A stretch of 64,000 nucleotides of DNA from Candidatus Hydrogenedentota bacterium (GCA_003697085.1 RFFU01000040.1:3133-67132); one strand, 5' to 3'. Numbered from the stretch's first letter, positions 31,605-60,508 are shown. Notes: generated by a model from the sequence alone, not told the origin. Numbers and translations: made by a program.

Positions 31605-31894
31605 CCTCTTCCTTCTCACCCCCGTGGTTCAACCTGTTCGTCTGGCAGGCGTGCATGAGATATCGTTAGCCTTCCGCAGGACCTTTAGGGCCTGCGTTAT
31701 CGGAATCGGCATTCCTGAAATTCGATTGAACCGGTTTAGATTCTCGAAATCCGCGAAATGGTGTTGACACGGCCTCCTCTTCGGGGAATGATTCCTCGGT
31801 CTCCAGTAACGAGGTACTTGCCTTCGGCGGCGAAGAGAGAGAAGATCGAGGGCGTGCCGAGGACGAAACCAAGCGGAGAGGGCCTTTAAGAGTT

Positions 31895-32953
31895 ATGTCG
31901 ACGCGTCAAACCCACAGGGAAGTCGTGCCGTTCCTGCTTCCCTTCACCGTGATCTTTGTCATTTTCCTCTTCTTTCCCGCCCTCTACTCCATCTACCTCT
32001 CTTTCCGAAAGGCGTCGCTCTATTCGGACCTGACGAACATCTTCACAACGATGAAATATGTGGGGTTTCAGAACTACATCGATCTCCTTCACGACCGCGA
32101 TTTCCTCTGGTCGCTCGTAATGACCACGTATTACGGAATTCTGGTTGTTCCGCCGGGCATCTTCGTCTCATTGGTTCTGGCGGCGTTGCTTTCGAATCGA
32201 CTTCCGGGGCACAAGATCTTCCGGAGCGCCTTTTTTCTCCCAAACGTTCTCGACCTTTTCGTGGTTTCCATCGTCTGGACGGCGATCTACGCCCCGAAGT
32301 TAGGGGTTCTTGACCAACTCTTTCACGCCTTGAAACTTCCCGTACTTTTCAAACACGGGATTCTCGCCGATCCCGTCTGGGCTTTGCCGGGGATTGCTCT
32401 GATGGTGATCCTGAAAGATTCCGGTTTCGGCATGATCCTTTATCTTGCGGCGATCCAGAATATTCCGCGGGACGTTTACGAAGCCGCGGACATCGACGGA
32501 GCGACGGCGTGGCAGAAGTTCACGAAGATCACCTTTCCGCTTGTCAAGCCCGTCACGCTTCTGCTCATCGTCACAGGAATTCTGCGAAGTCTGATGGCGT
32601 TTCCCGAGATCTACGCGCTGACGCAAGGCAGGCCCTTTCAGGAGATACCGAACTGGGTGCCGTATTTCGCCGGGGCGACGTTGGGAATGACGAAGATCGC
32701 GGGGTACTATCTCTTTGAAAAGTTTTATCTTTCTTATCAATACGGCTACGCGGCGGCGATGTCGGTCATTCTCCTCTTCATCTCCTTGCCGCTCTCCTTC
32801 CTTTCCTTCTTTGCCTTGCGGACGGAGGGGCCGTCGGTGGGAGAGATGTGGAGGAAGTGGCGGCGGAGCCGACGCGGAATCTCGATGGGAAATGCCGAGG
32901 GGGAAAGTACATCTCCTTTTGGGGAAGGCCTGAAACCGGGAGAGGTCGGATGA
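31895..32953 (+). CDS. ABC sugar transporter permease (MalF/UgpA-like)
   Basis: Six TMs and the EAA loop AADIDGATAWQKFTKITFPLVKPV. Start ATG 31895. Confidence 0.85.
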   Translation: MSTRQTHREVVPFLLPFTVIFVIFLFFPALYSIYLSFRKASLYSDLTNIFTTMKYVGFQNYIDLLHDRDFLWSLVMTTYYGILVVPPGIFVSLVLAALLSNRLPGHKIFRSAFFLPNVLDLFVVSIVWTAIYAPKLGVLDQLFHALKLPVLFKHGILADPVWALPGIALMVILKDSGFGMILYLAAIQNIPRDVYEAADIDGATAWQKFTKITFPLVKPVTLLLIVTGILRSLMAFPEIYALTQGRPFQEIPNWVPYFAGATLGMTKIAGYYLFEKFYLSYQYGYAAAMSVILLFISLPLSFLSFFALRTEGPSVGEMWRKWRRSRRGISMGNAEGESTSPFGEGLKPGEVG

Positions 32954-34077
32954 TGTCGGGCTATCGATTTCTTCGTATGATCCGCGGGTCGCTATTGGCG
33001 GCGATACTTCTCGTGGCAGCCGTCTTCGTCCTCTTTCCCTTTTTCTGGATGCTTTCGACGTCGCTGAAGACCGAAGGAAGGGGAATGAAATTCGAGTTTC
33101 TTCCACGGCGTGTCGCGGAGGTCGGCCCGGTTGAAATTGATACGGCGGGGGTTCGTGTCGGAGAGATTCAGTTCGATCGAACGACGGTGGATGAAACCGG
33201 GGTTCATCCGGCACTGAGGAGCGCGGGGGCGGACGAAGTAATATTCGTCGCCGAGGAAGCGAAGGGGAAGCGGGTATCAGGAAGATTGTTTCCAAAAGAC
33301 ACGGAAGTCTGGGCGGCGAGGGAGGCGCTGCCAGCGGGGAATTGGAAGATCACATATACGGTGAAGCGCGGATGGAAGGCCGCCTTTTTCAATCTCTACA
33401 CCTTCAACAATTACAGGCGCCTTATCAGAAATAAATCTTTTCCTTTCAAGACGTATCTTTTCAACTCCTTTCTCGTTTCCGTTTCCGCCGCGATCCTAAC
33501 TGTCATCCTCTGCGCGTTGGCCGCTTACGTTTTCGCGAAGAAGGAGTTTCCGGGGAAGACGGTTCTCTTCTGGTCTTTCATGGCGGCGATGATGATTCCG
33601 GGAATGATGTATATGGTACCGCAATTCGCCATTGTAACTCAGTTCGGATGGATCAACACGCTGCAAGGCCTGGTTGTTCCGCACCTGGCCAATGTCTTCG
33701 GGCTCTTTCTTCTGAAGCAATTCATGGAGGCGATCCCCGACTCGCTGCTCGAGGCGGCTGAGATGGACGGTGCGACGGAGACGACGAAATTTCTCAAGAT
33801 CATCACGCCGCTTTCGATGCCTTCTCTGGCGATCCTTTTTCTTCTGACCTTCATCACGCAGTGGAACAATTTCTTTTGGCAGCTGATCGTGAACACTCCT
33901 GATTCGCCTTATATCACGCTTCCTTACGGAATCGCCCTCTTCAGGGGCCAGTACGAGACGAAGTACGAACTGATGATGGCGGCTTCTTCCTTCTCGATCG
34001 TTCCGATCGTGATCCTGTTTCTCTTCACACAGCGGTATCTGATCGAGGGGCTGACCGCGGGAGGTGTTAAGGAATGA
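32950..34077 (+). CDS. ABC sugar transporter permease (MalG/UgpE-like) with a large periplasmic loop after TM1
   Basis: EAA loop EAAEMDGATETTKFLKIITPLSMP. ATGATG overlaps the upstream TGA. A roughly 140-aa hydrophilic insert follows TM1. ORF track 32848.. is an upstream extension. Confidence 0.85.
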   Translation: MMSGYRFLRMIRGSLLAAILLVAAVFVLFPFFWMLSTSLKTEGRGMKFEFLPRRVAEVGPVEIDTAGVRVGEIQFDRTTVDETGVHPALRSAGADEVIFVAEEAKGKRVSGRLFPKDTEVWAAREALPAGNWKITYTVKRGWKAAFFNLYTFNNYRRLIRNKSFPFKTYLFNSFLVSVSAAILTVILCALAAYVFAKKEFPGKTVLFWSFMAAMMIPGMMYMVPQFAIVTQFGWINTLQGLVVPHLANVFGLFLLKQFMEAIPDSLLEAAEMDGATETTKFLKIITPLSMPSLAILFLLTFITQWNNFFWQLIVNTPDSPYITLPYGIALFRGQYETKYELMMAASSFSIVPIVILFLFTQRYLIEGLTAGGVKE

Positions 34078-35489
34078 TTAGAGGAACGAATAGAACTCCG
34101 GGGATCGCACGGAAGGGAGGAGCCTGTCTGCTTGGGATTCTTTTCCTTTTCTCGGTTGGTTGCGGCGGCGGCCGGATCGCTCAAGAGAAAGGAACGATCA
34201 CACTCTGGGAGACCTACAACAACGAGGAACACGATGTTTTTATGGAGATCGTGAAGTCATTCGAGGAATGGTACGCGAAGGAGCGCGGAGAAGAGGTTCA
34301 TGTGCGCGTCAAACGGATCCCCTTTGACCAGCACATTCAAAAGATCAAATTCTCCGCCATTACGCGAACGGCTCCGGACATCGTGCGTGTCGATGCGGGA
34401 GAACTGATCGATCTCGTTTACGGCCAGATCGTTTATGACTTGAAGGAGATCGATCCGAAGATCGAGGAATATCTTTCGACGTTTATGCCGGTGGCGCGGG
34501 AATCGGTTCGGATTCCCTTACGCCATCCGGACGGAAAGGTTCGAACGGGCGTCTATGGGATCCCGGATCAATTGACCGGGGTTGCGATTTACTACAATCG
34601 AACGATGTTCAAGGAAGCGGGGATTCCGTTTCCGCCGCGGACCTTACGGGAGTTGCGGGACGCGGATCCGCCATGGGATTTCAAGCGGTTCCGGGAGGTC
34701 GCGAAGGCCCTGACGAAGCCCGAGCGGAACCAGTACGGCGTGGCGCTCAATTCCTCGCTGTGGTTCAGTCTGCCCTTTTTCAACGCCTTCGGAGCGGATT
34801 TCATCAAGATCGATCCGGACGGCAAGTTCCGCTGCGTTCTCGATTCGGACTCGGGAATAAATGCTCTCACGGCGCTCGCTTCGCTCTACTGGGATGGTTC
34901 CGAGCCGGGGGCGTGGTTGGCCGGGGCCATCAACCCCGATCGCGGTTTCATCAACAACAAGTACGCGATGATCGTTTCCGGTCCGTGGAACCTCAAGACC
35001 TTTCGCAAATCGGGAGTCGATTTCGGCGTGACGTTCATTCCGGAGGGGCCGAATCGTCGGGAGATTCCCGTGCCCGGAGGGGGAACGATCCGCGTGGGAA
35101 CCTCGACCAATGTCGGCGGCACGGACATGGCGATTCTGAAGACGACGCGCCAGCCCCGATTGTGTTATGAATTCCTGAAGTACCTCACGAGGCCGGAAGT
35201 GCACGCAAAGTGGTGCAATGCCCTAGGGCAGATTCCCGTCCAGACCTTGGCTGAACCGTTGGTGGATTTTTCCGGGAACCCGGACCTGAAGGTTTTCGTG
35301 GAGCAGATGCGGACGGCGGTCCCGCGCCCGAAGATACCGCGGTACGGGGTATTGGAGGTTTCGATCATGGTGCCGCAGATCGAGCGGGCGTTCCGCGCGA
35401 GGAATCGCGCCGGTGTTCGTCTCGCTTTGGGGAAAGCGGTCGAGGAGATCGACCGGCGGATTCTCCGGGACGTTAATGTACCGCGATGA
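34074..35489 (+). CDS. ABC transporter extracellular solute-binding lipoprotein (sugar-binding family 1)
   Basis: Lipobox LFLFSVGCGG and an SBP_bac_1-like sequence of 471 aa. The ATG overlaps the permease TGA (ATGA). Confidence 0.8.
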   Translation: MIRGTNRTPGIARKGGACLLGILFLFSVGCGGGRIAQEKGTITLWETYNNEEHDVFMEIVKSFEEWYAKERGEEVHVRVKRIPFDQHIQKIKFSAITRTAPDIVRVDAGELIDLVYGQIVYDLKEIDPKIEEYLSTFMPVARESVRIPLRHPDGKVRTGVYGIPDQLTGVAIYYNRTMFKEAGIPFPPRTLRELRDADPPWDFKRFREVAKALTKPERNQYGVALNSSLWFSLPFFNAFGADFIKIDPDGKFRCVLDSDSGINALTALASLYWDGSEPGAWLAGAINPDRGFINNKYAMIVSGPWNLKTFRKSGVDFGVTFIPEGPNRREIPVPGGGTIRVGTSTNVGGTDMAILKTTRQPRLCYEFLKYLTRPEVHAKWCNALGQIPVQTLAEPLVDFSGNPDLKVFVEQMRTAVPRPKIPRYGVLEVSIMVPQIERAFRARNRAGVRLALGKAVEEIDRRILRDVNVPR

Positions 35490-37239
35490 GCGGTCGGCTG
35501 GGAAGGAAGACCGGCTTCCGTGCCGACGGCGGCGTGCCGGACTGGCTCCCGGGAGCGGGCGTCTCCCGCGAAATCTGATTCCGTTTCTTTTCGTGATGCT
35601 TTTCCTGTTGGAACCGTTCGCTTTTGCGGGAGCGGTTCGAGCCGGCTCGATTCGATTGGAAGGGAACGTGGACCTTTCAGCGGAGATACGGCGGGACGCC
35701 GACCGCGAGTTGGACGACCGCCAGATCGGATTCGAGCGGCCGTTTTACGACAACCGCAAACGCCCTGCGTACAATCTGGAGTTCTTCGATCCACGGGTCG
35801 AGATCCGCGCGTACGCGACGCCGGCGGCGCCGGTTGAGATCTTCGCGAAATTTTTCAATTCCAATGATCTTTTTCTCGGCGAGGCACACACGCGTCTGAG
35901 GTACACCAAAGGGCGCGACAAGAAGGAGCGGGGGATCGAGTCGTATTTTTTCTACCGGCAAGGGCGACTGAACCTGGGCGATCCCGTCGTGACGATTGCC
36001 TTCGACCAGTTCGGAAACGGTATTGCGACGGCGTGGTGGTTGGGGCAGGGGGATTTCGCTCCCAAGAAGGGGCGTTGGTCCGGCGAATTGAATCTCCAGA
36101 ACAACACGGGCGAATTGAATTCCTTCGGAGAGGACAACGAATTCATCACCGCGAAACTCCGGCATGACTACGAGGTGAACGAGGATTGGAATCTGGCCGG
36201 CGAACTGCTGTACGCCAGAAAGAACTTCACGGACAGGAATGTGGAGCGGCAGTTCAACGAGGTGTACGGTTCGGCCTTCACCGTTTCGTGGAAGAATACG
36301 AACCTGGCGCTTCAATACAATTTCTCGCAGGCGCAGGAGCTGGGATTTTCGGCTCCGGACAACGGTGTTTTCGGAATCGATCTCAGAAATCTGATCCTGC
36401 TGGATCGGAAGAAGACGGGCCGTTGGGGGCTGAACGCGACCTATGTCGATTTCGGCCGAAACTACCGGAACTTCATCGGACGAAACGCAAGCACCATCTC
36501 CTACGCGCATCGGATCGCCAACGGAGTGGAATCGACGGCGGGGGATGTCAATGATCACGAGTTCTTCGGGGAACTCTACTGGGACGTACCGAAATACGAT
36601 ATCAATCTGACTTTGAGGCAGACGGACCGATACGGAAGGGAGACGGGACGTCGGCTGGAGCGGCAGCAGGAAGTGGATTTGAATCTGAAACTGGTGAGAC
36701 ACTTTTCGCTTCGTTCGCTCTATGTAAGGAGACTCTTCGGGCTCGAGGAGATATTGGAGGATCTCGATGCGAACCGAATCATCCGAACGCGAAGTATGCG
36801 GAGTGACGATTATTATTTGGCTCTGACGATGGTTCGAAAATGGGGACAGGTGAAACTTGACTACCGTCGCGTGCGGCATCGCGCCCGCGTGCGAACCCAT
36901 TACGTCGGCGCCGAGGCCACCTACAAGGCGAACAAGAAGCTGACCTTTCTGGCCCGCGGCGCCATGGCCTTCGTGAGATTGCCGCAAACGACGTGGGCCA
37001 TCACCACCACCCCGTATGACTTCGGAACGCAGAGGCGGATTAGTTTCGTGGAGCCGTTTTCCCGTCGGAAGACGCTCTTCGCGCAGATCCAATACCGCCC
37101 AAACGACAATTCGCAGATCTTCCTCGAATACGGCAACGGTTTTCATCTCGACAACGACCTTTCGTTGGACGGGGATTTTCAGATTCCCGACCGGCATACG
37201 GATCATCGAATTTTTATGAAGGCGGAGATGTGGTTCTGA
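35476..37239 (+). CDS. putative outer-membrane beta-barrel protein (porin-like) co-transcribed with the sugar ABC transporter
   Basis: Signal-like RNLIPFLFVMLFLLEPFAFAGAVRA. Alternating amphipathic beta-strand pattern, aromatic girdle residues, and the C-terminal ...KAEMWF (terminal Phe typical of OMPs). Start uncertain among 35413, 35476 and 35596. Confidence 0.55.
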   Translation: MYRDERSAGKEDRLPCRRRRAGLAPGSGRLPRNLIPFLFVMLFLLEPFAFAGAVRAGSIRLEGNVDLSAEIRRDADRELDDRQIGFERPFYDNRKRPAYNLEFFDPRVEIRAYATPAAPVEIFAKFFNSNDLFLGEAHTRLRYTKGRDKKERGIESYFFYRQGRLNLGDPVVTIAFDQFGNGIATAWWLGQGDFAPKKGRWSGELNLQNNTGELNSFGEDNEFITAKLRHDYEVNEDWNLAGELLYARKNFTDRNVERQFNEVYGSAFTVSWKNTNLALQYNFSQAQELGFSAPDNGVFGIDLRNLILLDRKKTGRWGLNATYVDFGRNYRNFIGRNASTISYAHRIANGVESTAGDVNDHEFFGELYWDVPKYDINLTLRQTDRYGRETGRRLERQQEVDLNLKLVRHFSLRSLYVRRLFGLEEILEDLDANRIIRTRSMRSDDYYLALTMVRKWGQVKLDYRRVRHRARVRTHYVGAEATYKANKKLTFLARGAMAFVRLPQTTWAITTTPYDFGTQRRISFVEPFSRRKTLFAQIQYRPNDNSQIFLEYGNGFHLDNDLSLDGDFQIPDRHTDHRIFMKAEMWF

Positions 37240-37276
37240 TGGAAGAAAAGACGCGGGAAGGAAGAGGAAGAGGGTT

Positions 37277-39484
37277 ATGAGACGCGGCGAGGAATCTCGA
37301 GAGAAACCGGCCGGGAGGGAGAGACGGCGGCCGGGGCGGAATGTGATTCAAAGCCTCGGCGTCTTTCTCCTTCTTTCGGGCGTTCTGCTTCTGATCGGTT
37401 CGGGGAGGGTGCGAAGCGAGGAGGAAAAGAGCGAACGTGTATTGCCGCCGGCGATGGCGATGCCTTACGGAAAAATCCGCTTTCTCTGGGACGACGAGTT
37501 CGCGAAGAAGGTGGAGATCGGCGCGGATTTCAACAACTGGAATCCCTCGGCAACGCCGTTGCACCAAGGGCCCTACAACATCTGGATGACGGAGGTGGAC
37601 CTCAAGCCGGGGAAGTATTCCTACAAGTTCGTGATCGACGGGCAGTGGGAGTCGGGGGACAATCGGACCTTGATCGTGGTGAGGAAGAAGGACGGGACGA
37701 TCGGGATCAAGGAGACGCGTCCCGCCTCGAACACGCCCTACAATTCGCGGATCTGGTTTGAGGGGAGAGCCTGGGCGCAGGCGGTTCTGCGGAGGGTTCC
37801 GGACGGCGAGCAGGTCGATACGGGGCGCTGGCGGTTCGCTCCGTTCGAGTACAACCTTCTTCCCCGGATGTATTTCACGGCGGGGGACAACTTTACGGGA
37901 ATGGTGGAGATGAATATGAATCAGAGGCGGGATCGGTTCACGACCTTCTTCAACCAGGGCGAGGTGGCGTTGGAGGAGGATTTCGGACGGTTCTTTCTCT
38001 TTCGCCGGCGGCGGGCTTTCACATTCGACAATCCGATGCGCACCTTGGATCGGTTCCGTGACACGTTGGACGACGAGGTTTATTTCACGACGGAGCAGCG
38101 GCCGAAATGGCACAACTTCGGCCGCCGGTTCGATTTCATCACGCGGAATCAATCGGACAGCGATTTCACCTTTACCGCGGACGGCTGGCAGGGGTTCGTG
38201 TCGGACGTGCATCCGGGAAAATGGAGTCTGTTGGCGTTCGGAGCCGACCAGATGCGCAAGAACGAGGATCTTTGGGGAAGCCGAGTGAAGTGGGAGGGGA
38301 AGTACTTCACGGTGGGTGGGCATTATCTGATGAACAACCATCAGCGGGGTTTGATTGCGGCGCCGGCCGGAGGGAATTCCGTGCGGCAGAATGCGGCTTT
38401 CACGGATACCGACGGCGGCGTCTTCTTCTATCCCTACATCAATTCGGCGACGGATGACGGCCGTAATTATCTCAACTACGATGCCCTTGTCCTCTTCGAT
38501 CCGAATGCTCCGAACCGGGATCAATGGATGGGATTGGACTTCAAACTCGGCACGGAGAAGCATCATTTGTTCGGCGAGTGGGAATTTTATCGGAAGGACT
38601 GGTCGTACGTGGCGTTCGAGAACGGGGACGGGATGCTTCCGAACGGAGCGGGATTCTTCAACACGAGTGTCCACAATATCGGCGAGTTTCTCTTTGGAGG
38701 CCAGGAGAGAAAACACACGATTCTTTTCGGCGGTGTCTGGAAGCCGTGGGAGGCGTTGGGATTGGAGTTGGCGCTGAAGGCGGACGACGCCTCGGCGCTG
38801 ACGCTCGATCAGAACCGCAATCTCGTTCGCACGGATCCCAGTGGAGTGGAGTTCGCGTTTCGGGGAAAGTACCAGGCCGAGAAGTTCCGCTATGGGGCGG
38901 AATTCATCAGGCGAACGGTGCGCGATTTTCCGAACAACACCTTTCAGGCCAACTTCGACAACTTCGATTTCGTGGGCGTGGATGTGCTGGGCGCAAACGA
39001 TCTCTTCCAGTTCAAACAGTTGCTTGTGGCAACTCCGGGACGGTTCACGATCCACCTCGGGCATCGGTTCCGCAGTTACGATCTCACCGCCGCCACGCTC
39101 CAGACGAACGAACTCAAGCTCCGACTGGGCTATCAATTCACGAAACGGCTGGGGCTCGAGGCGGCGGGGCGGTACAAAAGTTACGATCTTCCCAACGATC
39201 CCTCCCTGACTGTTCAACCCGGTGTCCGTGAAAACTTTTTTGCCGGCGGGCTCCGCCTGATCTACCGCGTCTCGAAATATGTTACTCTGAATGCGGGGTA
39301 CGGGGTGAATTTCGAGAATGACGAGGATGTGGAATGGGGACAACTCTTCTTTATGCGCGAGGCCCTGGCGCGAGCGCAACGGCCGCAGTCGCCGACGACC
39401 CACGCATTGGATCAGGTGTTGGAGGCGGAGCGGGCCTTGCAGCGCGAACGGCGTTTCGAGTTCAACATCGATGCGCGGTTTTGA
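37277..39484 (+). CDS. outer-membrane beta-barrel protein with an N-terminal CBM48 / AMPK-beta glycogen-binding-type domain
   Basis: Signal/TM (VIQSLGVFLLLSGVLLLIGSG), then KIRFLWDDEFAKKVEIGADFNNWNPSATPLHQGPYNIWMTEVDLKPGKYSYKFVIDGQWESGDN (CBM48/GBD signature F.W....V.V.G.FN.W.....L.......W.....L..G.Y.YKF.VDG.W). About 600 aa of barrel-like sequence follows, ending ...FEFNIDARF. Confidence 0.6.
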   Translation: MRRGEESREKPAGRERRRPGRNVIQSLGVFLLLSGVLLLIGSGRVRSEEEKSERVLPPAMAMPYGKIRFLWDDEFAKKVEIGADFNNWNPSATPLHQGPYNIWMTEVDLKPGKYSYKFVIDGQWESGDNRTLIVVRKKDGTIGIKETRPASNTPYNSRIWFEGRAWAQAVLRRVPDGEQVDTGRWRFAPFEYNLLPRMYFTAGDNFTGMVEMNMNQRRDRFTTFFNQGEVALEEDFGRFFLFRRRRAFTFDNPMRTLDRFRDTLDDEVYFTTEQRPKWHNFGRRFDFITRNQSDSDFTFTADGWQGFVSDVHPGKWSLLAFGADQMRKNEDLWGSRVKWEGKYFTVGGHYLMNNHQRGLIAAPAGGNSVRQNAAFTDTDGGVFFYPYINSATDDGRNYLNYDALVLFDPNAPNRDQWMGLDFKLGTEKHHLFGEWEFYRKDWSYVAFENGDGMLPNGAGFFNTSVHNIGEFLFGGQERKHTILFGGVWKPWEALGLELALKADDASALTLDQNRNLVRTDPSGVEFAFRGKYQAEKFRYGAEFIRRTVRDFPNNTFQANFDNFDFVGVDVLGANDLFQFKQLLVATPGRFTIHLGHRFRSYDLTAATLQTNELKLRLGYQFTKRLGLEAAGRYKSYDLPNDPSLTVQPGVRENFFAGGLRLIYRVSKYVTLNAGYGVNFENDEDVEWGQLFFMREALARAQRPQSPTTHALDQVLEAERALQRERRFEFNIDARF

Positions 39485-39595
39485 GGCGGACGGGTGTCCC
39501 GCTTTGTTTTCCTTCCCGTTTTCTTTTCTTTCTCCGCGTGCGCTGACATTTTCAGGGAGGCGACGAGAAAATTTGAAGTTGGGAGGTTGGAGCGG

Positions 39596-40066
39596 ATGAC
39601 GAGGACGACTCATAAAAAGGGACGGTTTTCGGCGGAGCGTTTTGTGACGCTGGGGATGTTTACGTTGTTTCTCCTCTTGGCGTCCGGTTGCCTGGTGCGC
39701 GAAAGGCTGGAATCGGCCACCGTCGCGCAGAATCCCAAGGGCGTGCTTTTCGTTTACGACGATCTTTCGGCGAACGAGGTCTGGCTCGCCGGCCAGTTCA
39801 ACCACTGGGCGGCGAAGAAGGGAGATCGGTTTCTCATCGAGATGAAGCAAGGAGAGGACGGATTATGGCGCGCTGTCATTCCGTATCGCGAATACATCCG
39901 CGATCCCGAGTTCGATGAACTGGATGACGATATCTATGTCCAGCATGGACGGCGCTATCAGTACAAGTTCGTGATTGATCAGAACCGTTGGGTCACGGAC
40001 CCGAACAACCGGAGCCTGAAGAAGAACCCGGACGGGACCGAGAATTCCCTGCTGGTGGCGCCTTGA
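39596..40066 (+). CDS. lipoprotein with CBM48 / glycogen-binding domain
   Basis: RBS gggaggttggagcggATG. Lipobox LLLASGC, then GVLFVYDDLSANEVWLAGQFNHWAAKKGDRFLIEMKQGEDGLWRAVIPY...RRYQYKFVIDQNRWVTDPNN. ORF track 39494.. has an upstream extension. Confidence 0.65.
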   Translation: MTRTTHKKGRFSAERFVTLGMFTLFLLLASGCLVRERLESATVAQNPKGVLFVYDDLSANEVWLAGQFNHWAAKKGDRFLIEMKQGEDGLWRAVIPYREYIRDPEFDELDDDIYVQHGRRYQYKFVIDQNRWVTDPNNRSLKKNPDGTENSLLVAP

Positions 40067-42508: not shown

Positions 42509-42520
42509 CGGGCGCGGCCG

Positions 42521-43909: not shown

Positions 43910-44063
43910 GTTTTTCCACGGTTTCCGCGACTTGCGGGTGGGCGTGGAAGTGATAGAATTAAGGCGTAACGATACGAAAGAGAAGAATCGGAAAGAAAAA
44001 AGGAACGCAGGAGGAAAAGGAAGCGGTGGTACTGGCGCGACCGTTGAAGAGGGACCGGATGCT

Positions 44064-50000: not shown

Positions 50001-53000
50001 ACCGGCACATCGTCGCCTTCGGACGGAATCTATGTCAGCCGGAGGTACGCCAACGGTGACTCGACCGATTGGGCCTCGGCGGGCGGAATGGCTCCGGACA
50101 CCATCAACACGCCGGCGGCTCCGTCGTGGGAAGGAATCTGGATGGATTCGGTGACGGACAACCGAACGGACGACGCCGGAAACGCGTCCCGAGATCTGAA
50201 GGAGTTCCACGTGACCGCCGATTCCTTCAACCTTTATCTCCTAATGACTTTTCGAGATTTCACGAACGATGCCATCATCCAGGTCGCGGTTTCGACGGAC
50301 AATTCCTCCGACAAGCGTGTTTACGAAGGGCGAAGCGTTTATGCGGAGGATTCCTATACGTCGGTGGAGGGAGCCTGGGAACGAATGATACGGGTGAGGA
50401 CGGGAAACGACGATGTTTACACCTTAAACACGGCCTTTGCCGGCCAAGCGGCGAAATATACCGAGAATGTGTCGCAGAGAATGGTGGAGGTGGCGGTGCC
50501 GCTTTCGCGGTTGGGAGGTCGGGAGAAGATCTTGGGAAACACGGTAGGGTTCACGGTGGCGACCTTCATTAATTCAGCGGGAAGCGTCGGGCAGAACGGA
50601 GCGAACAATTCGAACATCGTCGATGTAATCACGACGAACAACGGCACGGGGACGTGGGGCGAGGTGAGCGATCGGGACGTCGATTTCCTCTTGAATGTGA
50701 CGTTCGATGGCGAAGGGAGGGTTACGGCGATCTCGGCCGATACCGTCTCGAGCACGATTCCTGACGAACCGACGCAGACGGGAGCCGCTGCTTCTTCAAA
50801 CTTTGATCTCATCTTCTACAATCTCTTCGTCGATCGCTTTCTTTCTGGGCGGAGTGACAATCCTCCTTCCGATCTGGATATGACCGGCGGCGATCTCGAG
50901 GGTATCGCGGATTCTTTCACCTATTTCAACAAGATGGGGGTCACCTGCGTGTATCTTTCGCCGATCATGGATTTCGGCGGCGGGGTTTGGGGATACAATC
51001 AGAGCGATCTGTATCGTCTCCAATGGAGTTTTGGTTCGCCGAGTGCGCCGCGGAATGGAACGCTGGATTTCGTCGATTTCGTCAAACGCGCCCGCCATCA
51101 CAATCTCAAAGTGGGTTTCGACTGGGTTCCGGGACAGGTATATAACGGGCGAACCGTTTCGAATCATCCGGAACTCTTCGAGGGAAAGCGATTCGGCGGC
51201 GAGGCGGTGCGGCAGGAATCGGTCGAGGCGCGGCAGTTCTTCTCGGACCATTCGCTTTTCTGGGCGGCGCTGGGGTCGTCGGCGTATCGTGTCGATAATC
51301 CCAAATTCTACCCAGATGATTACACGACCGGTTTGCCTTTCTTTGCTTACACGCGTGAGTTTTGGGACAAGTACGTTCCCGACCTGTACACCTTTGGAGA
51401 GGTGCCGGACAACGAGGGAGTGGTGGGGGCGTTTTGTAAGGACGGGCAGAGGCTCACGGGGATGCTTGACTTTCCGATGATGTTCGGATTGCAGCAGTGG
51501 GCCGCCGGAAACAAGAATGCCAGCGATTTCAAGACACAGGATATCGAAGGAAAGGAGCCGAGTTACCAAGGAGCCGTGAAGGCGTTGATGGCGACTCTTA
51601 TCGAAAATCACGATCATAGTCGGACTTATCATCAAGTCGGCGGAGGTCCGGATCTGGACGGATCGAAGGATCCGGCGATCATGGCGAACATTCAGTTGGC
51701 GTATCTCTTTGCCGGCGCGCACAGTCACAATCCGGTGATCTGGTACGGCGACGAGGTCCCCATTACGGGATGGAAGGATTACACCTATCCGGGGTTCACC
51801 TATACGACGAGCACGAGCAAATTCGGGAATACCAGGGCCTTCCCGTGGGATTTCCCGGACGGGACGTGGTTGCGAGACAATTTTCGGGCGATCTTCACCG
51901 CACGGAACATCTTCCGCGCGCTTCGGACGGACAATGCCGGGCGCTTTTTCGATATTCCGGATCTCAATGTGATGACGATGCAGAGATTCACTGGGGGAGC
52001 GGGGGATTACGAGAAGGTGGTGGCGGTGATCAACAACGCCAATGTGGACAAGAATGTTACGATTGCCACGGGCGACAGCAACAAGTTCTTCCGCGATTGG
52101 CTCAACCCCGCCGTGACGGGGACCACGGATGCTTCCGGAAATCTCGTCGGCTGGAATGTGCCGTCGAACTGGGGGTTTTATCTTGTGCGCGGGGGATTCG
52201 GACAGAGGCAGTTGCACGTGGATGCGGGAATGAGCGGTGTGATCGTCTCGATAGACAATACTTCTTCCTGGACTTGTGTGACGGGGGACGACGGGAGTTG
52301 CACGATCACGCGGATTCTCGTCAACGACGAAGGCAATGGGAACTTTAATTCGTGGGATCGCACCTTGCGGGCCTGGAAGAAAGGGTACAAGGAGTACGTC
52401 GGGACGTACACCTTCGGTTCCTCGAACGGAGTGGCGGCGGTTGCCGATGACACGACGATTACGTTGCAAGCGGATGATGGCGTTCCCCCGGCGGCTCCGC
52501 AGGGCCTTTCGGCCCAGCCGCGGGACCGAGCCGCGTTCCTGACCTGGGAGAAGAACAATGAAAGCGATTTCGAGTCGTACAAGGTCTATCGATCCAAAAC
52601 GCCCAACGATCCCTCACCGACCTTGATCGCCGAAACACTTCGTCCGTTCCTTTACGATAACGATCTCGATAACTTTCTGACCAACGGCGATACCTATTAT
52701 TACAAGGTTCGCGCGATGGACTGGAACGAGAACTTGTCCGGGTTTTCGAACGAGGTGGCGGTGGTTCCGGGAAAGTACAACGTGAAGTTTTATTTGGAAC
52801 TTGAAGGTTCGGGACTGAGCGGAGTGCAATACGCCATGATTGCAGGGAACCATGACGCCCTCGGCGCCTGGACTCCAGTTCAGATGACACAGGTCGATAC
52901 CACGCTCTGGATGATAGAGACTGAGATGGATCCGACCTCGATGCCGGAGTACAAATATGTTGTTCAAACGGCTTCCGGGCAGATATGGGAGAACGATTTC

Positions 53001-54347
53001 GGTAACAACAAAATCTTCACGCAGAACCGCCTCGTGGACATTGTCGATCACACGGGAAATCGCGAAGCGATCTTCACGAACAAGTGGAACATTGCCGGGG
53101 ACGCGGCGCCGCGGCAGGTGAAGAATGTCACCGCGGTGAGCGCGGATTCAGGGGTAAAGGTGGGATGGAGTCCGAATCCCGAGCCGGACGTGGTTCGGTA
53201 TGTTATCCAGCGGGCCACGAACCCCGCCGGACCGTTTACCTATTTGGGTGACGCCGATGCTTCTCAGAACGTTTTTTGGGATACGAATGTGACGTTGGGA
53301 TTGACGTATTACTATCAGGTTCGAGCCGTCGATTGGTGGAACTCGGGCGGGGATTTCTCCGCCAACGCGTCCGTGACGGTCTCTCCAGCCGACCTTGTCG
53401 CCCCGGCGGCTCCCACCGGCCTCACGCTCAATCCCGCTGGAACGTCCTCGATCAAACTCACGTGGTTGGCAAATTCCGAAGGGGATGTTTCTGGGTACGA
53501 TGTGTATCGGAGTACCGATCCGACGGTTCCGATTGCCCCGGAAAACAAGGTGAACGCGAGTCGGATCTTGCATTCGTTGTCACCGAGCTACACGGATACG
53601 GGGGTGACGGCGGGGCAGCGATATTACTACCGCGTCGTTGCCATCGACAATGCGAACAACCAATCCTCGGGGAGCGACACGGCTTCCGCGTATCTTGTCG
53701 CGGCGACCTTCGTTCTTGATTTGGGCAATGTGTCGCCGTCTTCGGTCGAAATCTCGGGGAATGCGGCGACAATGGGCCCGAGTCCGTCGCGGGTTAAACT
53801 TTCGAGCATCGGAGGAAGCCAGTGGTCCGTCACATTGGGAGTCTTTGCCGGCGTGCAACTGACGTATAAGTACAGCTACAACAACGGAACGGTCGAGGAA
53901 GCAAATTTTCAGACGAATTCGCTCAAGAGGGAGTGGACCCCCTCGGAGCAAGCCAGCGTAACTCGGCAGGAAGATTGGGAGGAGGAGCCCGCCGGAGTAA
54001 GATCGCCGGCCGGTTATCCTGGAAATAAAAAGGCATATCTCAGCTGGACTGGGGATTCCAGCGTGGATGTGTACGCCTACGTCATCGATCGCGCATCGGC
54101 CTCCGATACCACTTTTCATAGACTGACTCCTTCTCCGACGACCAATACGTATTACACCGATTCCAATCTGACGAACGGAGAGACCTACTATTACGTGATT
54201 CGTTCGGTCGATGCGGGGACGTTTCAGTTGGAGAGTCCGCCGTCGAAGATGCTGGTAGTGATGCCGAATGAGCCGATTTGGGTACGGTTTCGCGTCGAGC
54301 GGCCGGATGCGGATCGGATTCGAAGGCCGAAGGTGGTTTGGAGATGA
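44064..54347 (+). CDS. giant multidomain secreted protein (about 3420 aa from the probable start): N-terminal CBM-like modules, lamin-tail domain, multiple fibronectin-III domains, an internal alpha-amylase-superfamily (GH13-like) catalytic module and CBM20-like starch-binding modules
   Basis: Single uninterrupted 10.4-kb ORF (43932..54347). Probable start GTG 44064 or 44085, giving the signal peptide KRPSHGKRRREIERGRSFVSIGLLLFGGGLLFQIFAPVYA. Modules: GDFNGWNN / GTYNGWDTDG CBM-like at 44200-44800. Lamin-tail domain (SGASATDDFIELYNPTPDSIEMSNYFL) around 44950-45300. Fn3-like units (e.g. PTFTWKES...WYYWRVRAKDSGSQVSDYS). GH13-like core about 50790-52200 (LIFYNLFVDRF, GGDLEGIADSFTYFNKMGVTCVYLSPI, YTFGEVPDN, LIENHDHSRTY). 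CBM20-like module (KFYLELEGSGLSGVQYAMIAGNHDALGAWTPVQMTQVD...YKYVVQTASGQIWENDFGNNKIF) about 52780-53080. Confidence 0.85.
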   Translation: MRPFDQAVKRPSHGKRRREIERGRSFVSIGLLLFGGGLLFQIFAPVYATNPVTVPGDFNGWNNSSGNKMTYINTWNGRDVFAVLTTIDSVAYGTGHQYKIYVGDWATPSGGWLGGGTSSGLKLPQVVNQLDSQPVTPTITIDIDTSVYHDTPGMFYIQFRVKPSGGGLGTINDVVFKRATVQAPGTYNGWDTDGAATEMAKIGLTDTWVKYVSISAVGTVQFKIITGNSWDWYHWGWSNANTLSVPVDTTAFEGPSFGAGQPQNIQVNVTETGVYRLTFNTVTDQITFTKVTEPLISQVQTSGASATDDFIELYNPTPDSIEMSNYFLAQRASSEETVTVIHRFTSDSIPPHGYYLWAHATGYTGETPANQTSLVNVTNDNLILLKKNGDTTSEYLAEVVDAVGYGAWAAPTSLAAQESGYWRSAFYEGSGLASNPAANGSLMRLPGGIGGEHSDSQDNANDFITLSASMPRNKTGYRTPYTFSDTVSPSSVVSGETFLLTMVVKDWLGETVGLYSDTADLSVSAGTINPKKTQAFSAGTRSESASITGAPATVTITTTAPDGSFQGTVDITVTPDLVNGWHIPKNNEPDTAVDADSFMRTATNTEGGTNNDTMWPRRRTTDNPILLWVGKAPVDPDSPQSAAFRYQTATTAWSAWQNFDDTVIVGGNLYYRFTLNQGATTDWDFRDTVAYYFRLEQVGKDTTYIYGSGVADDVTTSQKTPVEATAQASPFIYKIRSTRPLPPDTAISPTDGQTDVGTRKPTFTWKESFDIDTAAGDTIVDYYFEIATKPDMSDSASLGLSKWLGSGNTSYTIDSPLQAFTWYYWRVRAKDSGSQVSDYSETFQFKINAIIAVDGDISDWILGETFPTINAGNMSHSTSMGITWDSNSIYVMWDKKESLHDSDVLFIYIDAVPGGSNTSINWSGTHNLPFAADTAFHMEPKGLKFEYRYWNGGAWVWKGAIGQKAQNYAGGIAEVSFPWSLIGSPSRFKILVYAMNNASSNHNIYSIIPVQNRTGPSSQKLVNYFEFPSSQSTVPNTPKYYKTTVVWPAASKGVTSFTPLIDGVKDPGWGDVPTATSASYRQPFPGPADTPIEVPPGGICRDVYVTNDAQWLYIGWEAFSDPYQLETDNTEQNADYGFFVTDTGVWGSPVDPWRWYDANRNFNATHRTTGYGVNVVANGTVGFQESNFSSAFKYTTVDGVNWENGVTMTIDEDWSADFNDSGQGWGELRIPLSDIRADIGPGDTIAIVHFGRHSAAKPGVNDVTPFDGAAASNWADNNAVHEMGDTAVFVYVIQPGVIDAFHIPDSAPVLGRGLMRQPASPNTSDNIELFLRANPEGVATTVDLIYSTDTWASSTSTSMAVAYASGGADFWSVTLPSIPAGTILRYYFKAQSDVMTTYVYGYDTQSYTTSVQATAQANAFSVLLGNTPPTTPTEVTLLPTSPSTNDTLVATASGASDSDVDVGVDTLIYRFRWYKGEVFQFETFDSVPPYTSQVVPASTASGETWFVKVAAGDGEDTSSEITSAVRLISTLAVWPAPLHDRVNSARIVTSVSGGKQVREWVWKDKDGDVRSGRSDLDLKEVRIQADTDYIYFLLRLGTFSIDKPFIAIAVDTSLDASGGTEMGDQTALLLGGGFATPALKFERMIAIHAVSSGSLAVELDTGAGVPDWGTPRSGYLLNVRREAGTIEVRLARSDLLLKGICTARFAVATFDNVVGSAAAIDATKDYSGNDAFDAVSMPAFSSNDADFSMSAWDEDLSDNDLDYWFQLSFADTILEANDSPSSTPGMLPATGDSETTNPPFFSWGQPDDLGTNDTVIAYIFELGDSGADFEQAVTYRVITSARNYTPPTFLTDSTYHSWLVRAVDRSGQIGTAVVQTYFQENATSILVTAPDDKQNLNNLGARNGDEVAVTSIIWTWPAAIHSESAPIDSYIIEIDTSTAFTKPILVDTLPGSQRSYTYAGAVRGEVYYARLKAVDTGGFTGTSSPSDGIYVSRRYANGDSTDWASAGGMAPDTINTPAAPSWEGIWMDSVTDNRTDDAGNASRDLKEFHVTADSFNLYLLMTFRDFTNDAIIQVAVSTDNSSDKRVYEGRSVYAEDSYTSVEGAWERMIRVRTGNDDVYTLNTAFAGQAAKYTENVSQRMVEVAVPLSRLGGREKILGNTVGFTVATFINSAGSVGQNGANNSNIVDVITTNNGTGTWGEVSDRDVDFLLNVTFDGEGRVTAISADTVSSTIPDEPTQTGAAASSNFDLIFYNLFVDRFLSGRSDNPPSDLDMTGGDLEGIADSFTYFNKMGVTCVYLSPIMDFGGGVWGYNQSDLYRLQWSFGSPSAPRNGTLDFVDFVKRARHHNLKVGFDWVPGQVYNGRTVSNHPELFEGKRFGGEAVRQESVEARQFFSDHSLFWAALGSSAYRVDNPKFYPDDYTTGLPFFAYTREFWDKYVPDLYTFGEVPDNEGVVGAFCKDGQRLTGMLDFPMMFGLQQWAAGNKNASDFKTQDIEGKEPSYQGAVKALMATLIENHDHSRTYHQVGGGPDLDGSKDPAIMANIQLAYLFAGAHSHNPVIWYGDEVPITGWKDYTYPGFTYTTSTSKFGNTRAFPWDFPDGTWLRDNFRAIFTARNIFRALRTDNAGRFFDIPDLNVMTMQRFTGGAGDYEKVVAVINNANVDKNVTIATGDSNKFFRDWLNPAVTGTTDASGNLVGWNVPSNWGFYLVRGGFGQRQLHVDAGMSGVIVSIDNTSSWTCVTGDDGSCTITRILVNDEGNGNFNSWDRTLRAWKKGYKEYVGTYTFGSSNGVAAVADDTTITLQADDGVPPAAPQGLSAQPRDRAAFLTWEKNNESDFESYKVYRSKTPNDPSPTLIAETLRPFLYDNDLDNFLTNGDTYYYKVRAMDWNENLSGFSNEVAVVPGKYNVKFYLELEGSGLSGVQYAMIAGNHDALGAWTPVQMTQVDTTLWMIETEMDPTSMPEYKYVVQTASGQIWENDFGNNKIFTQNRLVDIVDHTGNREAIFTNKWNIAGDAAPRQVKNVTAVSADSGVKVGWSPNPEPDVVRYVIQRATNPAGPFTYLGDADASQNVFWDTNVTLGLTYYYQVRAVDWWNSGGDFSANASVTVSPADLVAPAAPTGLTLNPAGTSSIKLTWLANSEGDVSGYDVYRSTDPTVPIAPENKVNASRILHSLSPSYTDTGVTAGQRYYYRVVAIDNANNQSSGSDTASAYLVAATFVLDLGNVSPSSVEISGNAATMGPSPSRVKLSSIGGSQWSVTLGVFAGVQLTYKYSYNNGTVEEANFQTNSLKREWTPSEQASVTRQEDWEEEPAGVRSPAGYPGNKKAYLSWTGDSSVDVYAYVIDRASASDTTFHRLTPSPTTNTYYTDSNLTNGETYYYVIRSVDAGTFQLESPPSKMLVVMPNEPIWVRFRVERPDADRIRRPKVVWR

Positions 54348-55435
54348 GCCGATCTGTGTTCCGGATCGCGGTAGCGATAGCGCTCTTTCTCTGCGCGGCC
54401 CCTTCGACTTATGCTCAGACGGCGCGTGACACGTGGGCGCAGGTGACAAAGACGATCGTGGTCCAACCGGGCTTGGACGTCTCTTGTTGGAAGGATGCCG
54501 GAAGAAGTCAGATTACGGAAGGGCCGATGACGATGACCGCGGTCGGCGATGGTACCTATGAGGCGATTATCGGCCTTCAGCGGGGACAAAAATACAACTA
54601 TCTCTTTTTTGCCAATGCCGGATTTCCCGCGCCCGGCGGTTTGATGGATTTCAACGAATATTACGATGTCGTACCCACAAGCGGTTTCATCCGGGCTTCG
54701 ACAAACGGCGTTACGGTGAACGATACCGTTTCAGCATATTACGGATCCGTAGGGCTCACCTTCGATGCGCGGCGAATTCTCTCCGTTCCAACGACGATTC
54801 CTCCGGGAGACACGCTTTGGGTCTTCAACAATTTCGGGGAAACTCCGGGCATCGTCTCTTCCTTTTCGGCGTTTCCGGAGGGAGAAACGAAAATTCGGCT
54901 CGTTTGGGGAGATCCTTATGGGTTTTGGGGTCAGAATGGAGAGGCCTTCAAGGCGGCGGATGTTTTGGCGGGAGGGCAGTTTCTGATCTACCGGAGTCTG
55001 AGTGAGTCCGGTCCGTTTCGATTGATAGCCGCGTTGGACGGCAAGGAGAACACCTTCGTGGACGACAGCGGAACGACGGGACTTGCCATGGCCGAGACCT
55101 ATTACTACGTCATCCGGTGTCGCGACGCGTACGAGGGAACGAACCTGGCGACCGATTCTTTTCCTACACTTTCCAGTGACTCTTCGAATGTGGTTCATGC
55201 CACGACCAGCGGGCCGCTCATCGGGTTCTTTGTGGTTCAGGCGGCGGATTGGCATGTTATTGAAAGAACCCGTGGTCGTGTCTTTCTCTCGCCTCCGGAA
55301 GCTCCTCCGTGGGGAAGGAAGTATGAGGCTCGAATGGTGCGGGTTTATCTCCCTCCTGGAGATTTGCGAAAAAACGCGTTTATTGATTCAGGATCATCGA
55401 ACATGGAGAAAAGAAAAAGAGGAAGGGAAGAATAA
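54344..55435 (+). CDS. secreted hypothetical protein with Fn3-like region, translationally coupled to the giant gene
   Basis: ATG overlaps the giant-gene TGA (ATGA). Signal peptide MSRSVFRIAVAIALFLCAAPSTYAQ. Fn3-like GQFLIYRSLSESGPFRLIAALDGKENTFVDDSGTTGLAMAETYYYVIRCRDAYEGTNLAT. Confidence 0.55.
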   Translation: MSRSVFRIAVAIALFLCAAPSTYAQTARDTWAQVTKTIVVQPGLDVSCWKDAGRSQITEGPMTMTAVGDGTYEAIIGLQRGQKYNYLFFANAGFPAPGGLMDFNEYYDVVPTSGFIRASTNGVTVNDTVSAYYGSVGLTFDARRILSVPTTIPPGDTLWVFNNFGETPGIVSSFSAFPEGETKIRLVWGDPYGFWGQNGEAFKAADVLAGGQFLIYRSLSESGPFRLIAALDGKENTFVDDSGTTGLAMAETYYYVIRCRDAYEGTNLATDSFPTLSSDSSNVVHATTSGPLIGFFVVQAADWHVIERTRGRVFLSPPEAPPWGRKYEARMVRVYLPPGDLRKNAFIDSGSSNMEKRKRGREE

Positions 55436-55506
55436 AGGAAAACACCGGATGCGAGCGTAGCGCACCGAGGGGAAACGTGGAAGTCAATGGAATCCCGTGG
55501 AAATCT

Positions 55507-55754: not shown

Positions 55755-55831
<77 letters not shown>

Positions 55832-58418: not shown

Positions 58419-58450
58419 TTTCGAGGCCCCTTTCGTTCAACAGCGGTCCA

Positions 58451-60480: not shown

Positions 60481-60508
60481 CCGAGGTCAAGTTTTCCGCG
60501 GCGAGCGT

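Follow-up and report, generated by a model that had tools for sequence, protein, structure and literature searches.

To our knowledge, little has been established on how polysaccharide fragments pass the outer membrane in diderm bacteria other than Proteobacteria and Bacteroidota. A locus in a metagenome-assembled genome of a Candidatus Hydrogenedentota bacterium raises this question in concrete form: by what route might alpha-glucan reach its ABC importer when the locus encodes neither a maltoporin nor a SusC-type transporter? We analyzed a DNA stretch of 64,000 nucleotides (hereinafter the window), of which the locus occupies positions 31895–55435 with ten genes, all on the plus strand and mostly overlapping.

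Organization of the locus and its importer

The features discussed below are, in positions of the window:

31563–31792, plus: upstream boundary; terminator-like hairpin (31563–31589) that follows the gene upstream, and beyond it a sigma-70-like promoter match
31895–32953, plus: ABC permease 1, MalF-like, CUT1 (Pfam BPD_transp_1, E 6e-12)
32950–34077, plus: ABC permease 2, MalG-like (BPD_transp_1, E 5e-12)
34074–35489, plus: oligosaccharide-binding lipoprotein, SBP (SBP_bac_8 and SBP_bac_1; lipobox FSVGC)
35476–37239, plus: OMP-A, predicted barrel without a CBM, about 587 aa (signal peptide; ends in AEMWF; start codon approximate)
37277–39484, plus: OMP-B, 735 aa, signal peptide, CBM48 (residues ~59–145) and predicted barrel (159–734); ends in DARF
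39596–40066 (ORF 39494–40066), plus: small CBM48 lipoprotein, about 156 aa (lipobox LLASGC, then LVRERL)
40067–42508, plus: secreted subtilase with a LamG-like domain (Peptidase_S8, E 5e-38; Laminin_G_3, E 6e-12)
42521–43909, plus: cytoplasmic GH13 enzyme of the neopullulanase/cyclomaltodextrinase/MalZ type, 462 aa (Alpha-amylase, E 2.6e-48)
44085–54347, plus: giant secreted multimodular alpha-glucan enzyme, 3420 aa (Alpha-amylase, CBM_20, fn3, LTD, Ig_Rha78A_N)
54344–55435, plus: coupled secreted partner, 363 aa, CBM-like and fn3-like (ATG overlaps the giant's stop codon as ATGA; signal peptide)
57738–63782, minus: T2SS genes GspG, H, I, J and K and an L-like gene, convergent to the locus

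Adjacent genes overlap at their start and stop codons or lie 0–38 nt apart, the exception being a 175-nt gap 5′ of the giant gene; since this spacing is combined with an order that is kept in relatives, the arrangement is not a matter of chance. The terminator-like hairpin and the promoter match upstream (TTGACA-17-AATGAT at 31764–31792 in a consensus scan) suggest that the locus forms its own transcription unit; on the downstream side lie tRNA genes convergent to it. No regulator gene is found among the ten. The related loci L001–L005 show synteny at 44–68% protein identity, and in relatives the gene order is kept at ~47% identity: L004 retains it entirely, including the S8 protease, the cytoplasmic GH13 and the giant, and L001–L003 retain permease–permease–SBP–OMP–CBM48 OMP–CBM48 lipoprotein–giant. 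The preliminary description of a co-directional, tightly packed gene set is therefore sound, save that its eleven genes are ten; the genes stay together in homologous genomes, and Pfam searches recovered the GH13 and CBM domains that it had read in the giant and its neighbors, with Alpha-amylase matches for both of its GH13 modules (42521–43909 and the giant). We consider that the ten genes probably act as one operon-like unit through which alpha-glucan from outside the cell is used, be it starch, glycogen, pullulan or dextrins.

The inner-membrane component is a CUT1 oligosaccharide importer, comprising a binding protein with SBP_bac_1/8 matches and two BPD_transp_1 permeases. Neither the locus nor the 64-kb window encodes an ABC ATPase (MalK/MsiK); CUT1 systems commonly share one ATPase, encoded away from the transporter locus. 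Permease 1 is 66–68% identical to its counterparts in L001–L004, the ATG of permease 2, as read from the sequence, overlaps its stop codon, and the best solved relatives of the SBP include the acarbose/maltose-binding GacH (E 1e-18) and maltose/maltodextrin-binding proteins. The SBP would thus pass dextrins to the two permeases, with the ATPase supplied from elsewhere in the genome, and the GH13 enzyme without a signal peptide (42521–43909) would break them down to maltose and glucose. The catalytic domain of the latter belongs to the neopullulanase/MalZ-like GH13 enzymes, matching TVAII (E 1.6e-55) and neopullulanases (E 1e-55) in the PDB, and maltodextrin glucosidase (MalZ; E 7e-75) and cyclomaltodextrinase (E 3e-73) in NCBIfam, neither score reaching the equivalog cut-off; an N-terminal domain that the solved enzymes possess is missing from it, the alignment beginning at their residue ~128.

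These genes also bear on the direction of transport. Were the locus to export or remodel a self-made alpha-glucan, such as a capsule or a glycogen-like exopolymer, its barrels would be polysaccharide export pores. We regard this as very improbable: SBP-dependent CUT1 transport is import, the cytoplasmic GH13 is of a maltodextrin-degrading type, and no glycosyltransferase, synthase, Wza/OPX or polymerase gene lies in or beside the locus.

The giant enzyme and its associates

The single 3471-codon ORF noted earlier is present at 43932–54347; its translation most likely starts at GTG 44085, yielding 3420 aa with a signal peptide that ends in FAPVYA before TNP. Two starch-binding-like modules with a GxFNxW motif are followed by an LTD domain, Ig/fn3-like and DOMON-like modules, a divergent GH13 domain (about nt 50800–52330; Alpha-amylase, E 3.9e-17) and C-terminal fn3/CBM20 repeats. 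The GH13 assignment rests on conserved regions I–IV with the catalytic Asp (II), Glu (III) and Asp (IV) invariant across five family members, as are RVDNPKF, FGEVP and ENHDHSR. The best solved relative is a type II pullulanase (E 2e-14), and the nearest solved sequences to the catalytic domain are TK-PUL (5ot1), 8jnx, Anoxybacillus amylases and AmyP (E 1e-14 to 1e-6). The predicted enzyme may be a hydrolase or a transferase. Upon Sec-dependent export, it would presumably reach the cell surface or the medium, where its starch-binding modules might hold the polymer while the GH13 domain cuts it to maltodextrins.

Thermococcus TK-PUL and the Ruminococcus bromii amylosome enzymes likewise have a GH13 domain flanked by starch-binding modules and fn3/Ig spacers. 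Unlike such large multimodular amylases and amylopullulanases, the giant has about 1700 aa without a Pfam or PDB sequence match, an atypical region I (DWVPGQ, with Gln in place of the usual His of DxVxNH), and no dockerin, LPXTG, lipobox or T9SS tail. Its N-terminal 2178 aa matched nothing meaningful among PDB sequences, and self-BLAST (E 1e-3) revealed no repeats within the giant, the repeated fn3-like units being visible by motif only. Residues 826–3084 are 47% identical to the giants of L001 and L002, L086 encodes a relative of 3851 aa, and a homologue search with a 931-aa piece returned three partial relatives only. The giant represents a very large, divergent GH13 family with an unusual active-site motif.

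Of the downstream gene, previously called a coupled Fn3 partner, the coupling and a resemblance to the giant's C-terminal fn3/CBM units are borne out, though Pfam finds no match in it, fn3 included. Its own ATG, its signal peptide and the occurrence of a 40% identical homologue as a separate gene after the giant in L086 rule out that it is a part of the giant split off by a frameshift. The S8/LamG protease, present in L004 and absent from L001–L003, is an accessory gene; its tail is weakly CFI-box-CTERM-like (NF041770, E 0.0026, below the cut-off). The protease and the fn3-like partner are both accessory and may serve to mature the giant or to retain it at the surface.

A T2SS operon downstream had been put forward as a possible exporter of the giant. 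The genes are indeed there, but on the opposite strand and set off by two tRNA genes and an ATP-cone/PRK (kinase) gene, and in L086 the 6 kb that follow the giant's relative have no T2SS matches. The connection is one of proximity only, and a role in export is putative; we know of no sequence signal that marks T2SS substrates.

The outer-membrane proteins

OMP-B combines a signal peptide, an N-terminal CBM48, an all-beta barrel and an aromatic C-terminal beta-signal. Its N-terminus scores above the Pfam gathering cut-offs for both AMPK1_CBM (38.4 bits against 26.8) and CBM_48 (27.3 against 22.4), aligns best with the CBMs of AMPK beta1 and beta2 (E 1e-7), and keeps the FNNW and YKFxxDGQW motifs, which we take to hold the sugar-contacting Trp, Lys and Trp of the cyclodextrin complexes 1Z0M and 1Z0N. 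The same module is found in AMPK beta, SEX4/LSF1 and branching and debranching enzymes; here it is joined to a barrel rather than to an enzyme or kinase scaffold, making OMP-B a new type of fusion, that of a carbohydrate-binding module to a large outer-membrane barrel. An AlphaFold model built on a 38-sequence alignment (pLDDT 82.3; a five-sequence run gave 43.6, too poor for use) predicts the CBM48 followed by a barrel of about 22 strands, and its Foldseek neighbors are generic outer-membrane barrels only, in keeping with the CBM48–barrel fusion of the preliminary description.

OMP-A, described there as porin-like, has no Pfam or NCBIfam match and found nothing in a PDB sequence search; the barrel of OMP-B is equally without coverage in these three databases. 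The prediction that OMP-A resides in the outer membrane rests on three features: a signal peptide, the terminal residues MWF, and a profile homologous to that of the OMP-B barrel. When the alignment of its family (A6) is compared with the latter profile, hhalign gives a probability of 97.1% (E 6e-11) over the first ~10 strands, while the single OMP-A sequence scores 1.4%, the homology being visible only in profile–profile comparison. By this measure, OMP-A is a distant paralogue of the OMP-B barrel; it is 47% identical to its L001 counterpart. The third protein, the small lipoprotein, scores 22.0 bits for CBM_48, just below the 22.4 cut-off; its orthologue in L019 reaches 24.0 bits, and those in L084 and L085 have recorded CBM_48/AMPK1_CBM matches.

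The best Foldseek matches to OMP-B are 22-strand TonB-dependent transporters (Fiu, PirA, FrpB, BtuB), and the gene for a carbohydrate-binding lipoprotein adjoins that of the barrel as SusD does SusC. That the locus is a true Sus-like, TonB-energized system with OMP-B as its SusC analogue is nevertheless scarcely credible. None of the ten proteins has a Pfam match to Plug, TonB_dep_Rec or SusD and hence they do not constitute a SusC/SusD-type PUL; the structural matches are at TM-scores of 0.3–0.45 and about 10% identity, and the ExbB/MotA-like genes of the window are only those of a flagellar cluster. The sole N-terminal domain before the barrel is a CBM48, present in one to three copies in OMP-B relatives, and relatives with two or three copies rule out that it acts as a lumen plug in the manner of TonB-dependent transporters. 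The barrels also lack the LamB signature of LamB/ScrY maltoporins.

Because the barrels have neither a plug nor a TonB box, passage through them would be passive. We posit that dextrins cross the outer membrane via OMP-A and/or OMP-B as large paralogous channels, with the CBM48 modules of OMP-B and of the lipoprotein binding chains at the channel. Facing outward, these modules would enrich substrate where the channel opens; in the periplasm, where standard barrel topology would place them, they might block back-diffusion and act as a ratchet.

The earlier characterization of a Sus-like logic with unrelated parts is right as to the parts. As to the logic, genes for binding, cleavage and import do lie together, but the locus is equally close to the enterobacterial mal/pul regulon (LamB, MalEFGK2, MalS/MalZ; PulA secreted by the Pul T2SS in Klebsiella). 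With Bacteroides SusCDEFG it shares barrel genes beside genes for a starch-binding lipoprotein and a starch-binding GH13; it differs in lacking the TonB-dependent SusC and the SusD fold, in binding modules that are CBM48 rather than SusD/E/F types, in an ABC instead of an MFS inner-membrane transporter, and in a lipoprotein that is only putatively surface-exposed. With mal/pul it shares a secreted GH13, an SBP with two CUT1 permeases, a cytoplasmic MalZ-like GH13, a T2SS nearby and, on the predicted channel role, a passive sugar-specific outer-membrane channel. In contrast to mal/pul, it has no MalK; two paralogous ~22-strand barrels, one of them fused to CBM48, and a CBM48 lipoprotein stand in place of LamB; the secreted enzyme is ten-fold larger and not a PulA-type lipoprotein; and the T2SS, of putative role, is convergent and set apart by unrelated genes. 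In sum, the enzymes and the inner-membrane transporter are ordinary, and the three outer-membrane proteins are an undescribed module.

A conserved outer-membrane cassette

This module is not peculiar to the locus, and in this respect the preliminary description undersold the finding. About 50 loci, which represent at least nine lineages, most of them uncultured, contain the triad of OMP-A, CBM48-bearing OMP-B and CBM48 lipoprotein, and it is conserved across many candidate phyla. In 49 of 57 loci, OMP-A is the immediate upstream neighbor of OMP-B, and homologues of the lipoprotein with clear CBM48 and LPAM_1 matches follow OMP-B in 45 of 58. The cassette usually lies beside CUT1 importers and GH13 enzymes: importer genes occur within 10 kb in 29 of the 57 loci, as do, in the same number, cytoplasmic GH13 genes, and secreted CBM-rich GH13 enzymes adjoin it. 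A literature search that combined CBM48 with outer membrane, porin, Hydrogenedentes or Cloacimonadota turned up no account of the cassette.

A different reading of this conservation is that the triad is a display or anchoring platform, with dextrins entering by some other porin. The barrels would then let the lipoprotein, the OMP-B N-terminus or the giant reach or stay on the surface, comparably to MtrB sheathing MtrA/MtrC, RcsF passing through porins, or type V secretion. The lipoproteins have a common, strongly conserved motif directly after the lipidated Cys, C-x(2-5)-[FIL][IV][KR]xRL[PS][PA]P, which hints at a specific interaction with a protein at the membrane; MtrB (6r2q_B) and fimbrial ushers are among the structural matches of OMP-B; and domains N-terminal to a C-terminal barrel, with up to three CBM48 modules in relatives, recall the layout of autotransporters. 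However, a 22-strand barrel far exceeds the size needed for threading one linker, each locus has two paralogous barrels, and our locus has no porin candidate besides them. Moreover, the cassette is tied to SBP-dependent importers and not to a particular secreted enzyme. From lineage to lineage, the enzymes change, as do their secretion signals (L084 and L019 have T9SS tails, our locus has none), but the triad is constant. We therefore judge a display platform unlikely.

Returning to uptake, we tentatively propose, as a model whose correctness as a whole is distinctly uncertain, that the triad might be an unrecognized third kind of outer-membrane glycan-uptake machine, beside LamB porins and TonB-dependent SusCD. 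Paired large, plug-less barrels with tethered glycogen-binding arrays would feed or ratchet long alpha-glucan chains without TonB energy. If so, this machine would be the standard starch and glycogen gateway of Hydrogenedentota, Cloacimonadota, Eisenbacteria, Zixibacteria, WOR-3, Marinimicrobia and related uncultured phyla. The phyla bearing the cassette are almost all uncultured, yet abundant in digesters, sediments and hot springs; for them, it offers a genomic marker of starch and glycogen use in metagenomes, and the locus a concrete, conserved and experimentally tractable candidate for glycan passage in the form of a three- to five-gene set.

In Cloacimonadota, Eisenbacteria, Zixibacteria, WOR-3 and others, the cassette has the same order and adjoins CUT1 importers and GH13 genes, and is unannotated in public records. 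Most loci of these other lineages have two extra conserved upstream genes, both absent here, for a protein of ~400 aa and a TraF_2/PorP-like OMP of ~290 aa, which in the proposed model would also be parts of the machine. Their secreted enzymes carry T9SS tails. In Hydrogenedentota, the cassette is instead accompanied by the 3.4-kaa enzyme and its partner, to which some loci add the S8 protease.

Organization and conservation of the locus

The locus at 31895-55435 is real, and its earlier interpretation as an alpha-glucan utilization locus is supported. As stated in the preliminary description, all its genes are co-directional, with the ORF listing giving ten of them rather than the eleven counted there; nearly all the domain calls made by eye were recovered by Pfam.

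Features of the locus and its downstream border
31895-32953, +, ABC permease 1 (Pfam BPD_transp_1)
32950-34077, +, ABC permease 2 (Pfam BPD_transp_1)
34074-35489, +, solute-binding lipoprotein, SBP (Pfam SBP_bac_1/8; lipobox)
37277-39484, +, OMP-B, 735 aa (N-terminus above the Pfam AMPK1_CBM and CBM_48 thresholds)
39596-40066 (ORF 39494-40066), +, small CBM48 lipoprotein (lipobox; borderline Pfam CBM_48 score)
40067-42508, +, S8 protease (Pfam Peptidase S8 and Laminin_G_3)
42521-43909, +, cytoplasmic GH13 (Pfam E 2.6e-48; leaderless)
43932-54347, +, giant ORF, 3471 codons (Pfam Alpha-amylase, CBM_20, several fn3, LTD and Ig_Rha78A_N)
55506-55580, -, tRNA-Glu(TTC), convergent to the locus end
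55755-55831, -, tRNA-Pro(GGG), convergent to the locus end

The genes are indeed tightly packed, with most borders overlapping or 0-38 nt apart and the sole sizeable gap being the 175 nt found 5′ of the giant gene, which most likely starts at GTG 44085 to yield a 3420-aa protein with a clear signal peptide. The gene for its 363-aa partner is coupled to it as proposed: the ATG at 54344 overlaps the stop codon of the giant, and the product bears its own signal peptide. A hairpin resembling a terminator (31563-31589) and a site resembling a promoter (31764-31792) lie ahead of the first gene, both consensus matches only, while the downstream boundary is marked by the two convergent tRNA genes.

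The gene order is kept in related genomes. Three metagenomic contigs (L001-L003) bear relatives at ~47% identity and show the order permease-permease-SBP-545 aa-725 aa (CBM48)-163 aa-giant (3452/3488 aa), with both the S8 protease and the cytoplasmic GH13 missing; an uncultured MAG from the genome-collection scan (L004, contig CAZJQD010000004.1) has the complete order including the S8 protease, cytoplasmic GH13 and giant. The giants share 47% identity across residues 826-3084 and diverge in the first ~825 residues. A more distant 3851-aa giant relative is followed by a 40%-identical partner homolog in another locus (L086). The order kept in the first four loci and the recurrence of the giant-partner pair in L086 indicate that the locus is a conserved unit with accessory genes.

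The two predicted GH13 modules are both present, one in the leaderless protein and the other as a divergent catalytic domain in the giant. The former has matches to neopullulanase/TVAII, cyclomaltodextrinase and MalZ (E 1e-55 to 1e-48; NCBIfam also). For the SBP, GacH, an acarbose/maltose-binding protein, and several proteins that bind maltose or maltodextrin are among the best solved relatives. In the domain of the giant (50799-52331), neither GH13 regions II-IV nor the Asp/Glu/Asp triad vary among five family members. Region I reads DW[VI]PGQ[IV]Y in all five, with the near-universal Asn-His replaced by Gly-Gln, and region II ends in K-F, not K-H; the best solved match is a type II pullulanase, at only E 2e-14. 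These deviant motifs define a separate GH13 lineage. The N-terminus has two GxFNxW starch-binding-like modules, one with a weak X25 match, and the catalytic domain is further surrounded by LTD, DOMON-like stretches and C-terminal fn3/CBM20 repeats. Eight fn3-like units are visible by motif, and for ~1700 residues neither Pfam nor a PDB sequence search gave a match.

A widespread outer-membrane module

Between the importer and enzyme genes lies a triad comprising the 587-aa OMP-A, OMP-B and the small CBM48 lipoprotein. OMP-B, whose sequence equals that of the hypothetical protein D6679_04600 from a Candidatus Hydrogenedentota MAG, had been read as a CBM48-barrel fusion, which a confident AlphaFold model bears out (pLDDT 82.3, pTM 0.81; input alignment of 38 sequences, with full-length relatives added from an exhaustive profile search). 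In it, a signal helix is followed by a CBM48 sandwich (residues 59-145) and ~22 long strands across 159-734, with a helical insert (683-722) directly ahead of the last strand. The CBM48 aligns best with AMPK beta CBMs and keeps the FNNW and YKFxxDGQW motifs. We found no plug and no TonB signature in OMP-B; the features tested contradict TonB-dependent, Sus-like transport as a rival reading. In logic, the systems closest to this locus are the mal/pul regulon and Sus. The CBM48 itself is ruled out as a lumen plug: relatives have one, two or three such modules before the barrel, and therefore these constitute a tethered array.

OMP-A has no match in Pfam, NCBIfam or a PDB sequence search. Its alignment of 41 sequences, 40 of which are encoded directly upstream of an OMP-B gene (the exception being in L085), aligns to the profile of the OMP-B barrel (probability 97%, E 6e-11), which makes the two proteins distant paralogs.

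A genome scan returned 80 loci, in 58 of which the CBM48 match lies inside an ORF ending in a conserved ExRxQLEAIVRF, with a CBM48-to-stop span of ~550-780 aa. The gene directly upstream codes for a 470-600-aa protein ending in K[FL]ILKGxF, KFWF or MEMWF in 49 of 57 loci, and that directly downstream for a 130-160-aa lipoprotein with C-x(2-5)-[FIL][IV][KR]xRL[PS][PA]P in 45 of 58 (C-LVRERL in the window). This basic/proline motif, immediately after the lipidated Cys, is strikingly conserved across many phyla (window; L007-L081); it resembles a peptide for docking or sorting more than a free tether. By record titles, the module occurs in Eisenbacteria, Cloacimonadota, Zixibacteria, WOR-3, Elusimicrobia/Endomicrobiia, Lindowbacteria, Neomarinimicrobiota, Krumholzibacteriia, Hydrothermota and Gemmatimonadota.

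Of 57 loci, 29 have CUT1 importer genes no more than 10 kb away, and 29 have a gene for a cytoplasmic GH13 in that range; many of the contigs are truncated. The alpha-glucan context is supported by the annotated neighbors in two loci. L084 has, in order, a 1853-aa Glucodextran_C/CHU_C protein, 291-aa and 495-aa proteins, the CBM48 OMP, a 2xCBM48 lipoprotein, SBP, two permeases, a CBM20 protein and a GH13 with a T9SS tail. The complete Cloacimonadales chromosome (L019) shares this core and adds a T9SS-tailed CBM20/X25 protein and a 1281-aa 6xCBM48-GH13. Most loci outside Hydrogenedentota show two more conserved genes upstream of OMP-A (L019 6175-8332 and ~40 other loci), one of ~400 aa without a Pfam match and one coding for a ~290-aa TraF_2/PorP-like OMP. 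Hence, the full cassette has five genes in most lineages; as both extra genes are absent from the window, it carries a reduced three-gene cassette with a lineage-specific giant. Literature searches yielded no account of a module of this kind; this cassette, broadly conserved in uncultured phyla, appears undescribed and is the part of the locus deserving follow-up.

The profile search also returned proteins with 14-20 tandem CBM48-like stretches (P0024, P0029, P0036 and P0063), some up to 6207 aa, which shows that metagenomes contain CBM48 arrays of very large size.

Proposed path of the glucan and the question of export

We propose that the giant binds and cleaves the extracellular polymer and that the resulting dextrins would cross the outer membrane passively via OMP-A and/or OMP-B, with the tethered CBM48 modules assisting. 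The SBP and two permeases would then import them for final degradation by the cytoplasmic GH13. Rival readings take the outer-membrane module as a display platform or the locus as one for polysaccharide export. What the analysis shows is the domain content, the barrel fold, the paralogy of the two barrels and the conserved linkage of the module to genes for importers and alpha-glucan enzymes. Standard barrels have an even strand count and a C-terminal beta-signal on the periplasmic side. On this topology, the N-terminal CBM48 array is predicted to be periplasmic and would serve as a ratchet, not as a trap at the surface; by analogy, surface exposure via autotransporter-like or RcsF-like threading is possible.

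The T2SS pseudopilin genes noted downstream of the locus are present, but on the opposite strand and past the two tRNA genes and an ATP-cone gene that appears unrelated to both the locus and the T2SS.

Features downstream of the tRNA genes
56012-57373, -, ATP-cone and phosphoribulokinase/uridine-kinase fusion, between the locus and the T2SS genes
57738-63782, -, T2SS operon segment (GspG, three further pseudopilins, GspK, GspL-like)
59005-60306, -, GspL-like gene
60509-61561, -, GspK
63123-63782, -, GspG
within 57738-63782, -, three N_methyl pseudopilins, one GspJ-like
within 57738-63782, -, two small coiled-coil or membrane ORFs

Genes for the secretin, ATPase and platform are expected past the window end. 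No T2SS genes occur within 6 kb downstream of the giant relative in L086, and related loci in other phyla have T9SS tails instead (L084, L019). That this T2SS exports the giant is possible but unsupported.

Other features of the window

Just upstream of the locus, a 642-aa secreted protein (29614-31542, +) has a complete CFI-box-CTERM-like tail (CLIAAS...LRFARD...FYYG, a hydrophobic helix and RRRRK), and the S8 protease ends in a truncated version (42370-42508; NF041770, E 0.0026). These tail sequences hint that the organism has a dedicated system for C-terminal sorting. A large flagellar cluster at 3430-21068 (+) codes for MotA, MotB, FliL, FliM, FliN, FliO, FliP, FliR, FlhB, FlhA, FlhF-like and MinD/FlhG-like proteins and FapA, from which Hydrogenedentota are predicted to be motile. 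Beyond it, the stretch 22001-24000 has a GC content of 0.47 as compared to ~0.58 elsewhere and is possibly an insert of mobile or foreign origin.

Genes at the low-GC stretch
22557-23780, DUF4915 protein, within the stretch
24212-25063, DUF4277 protein, after the DUF4915 gene
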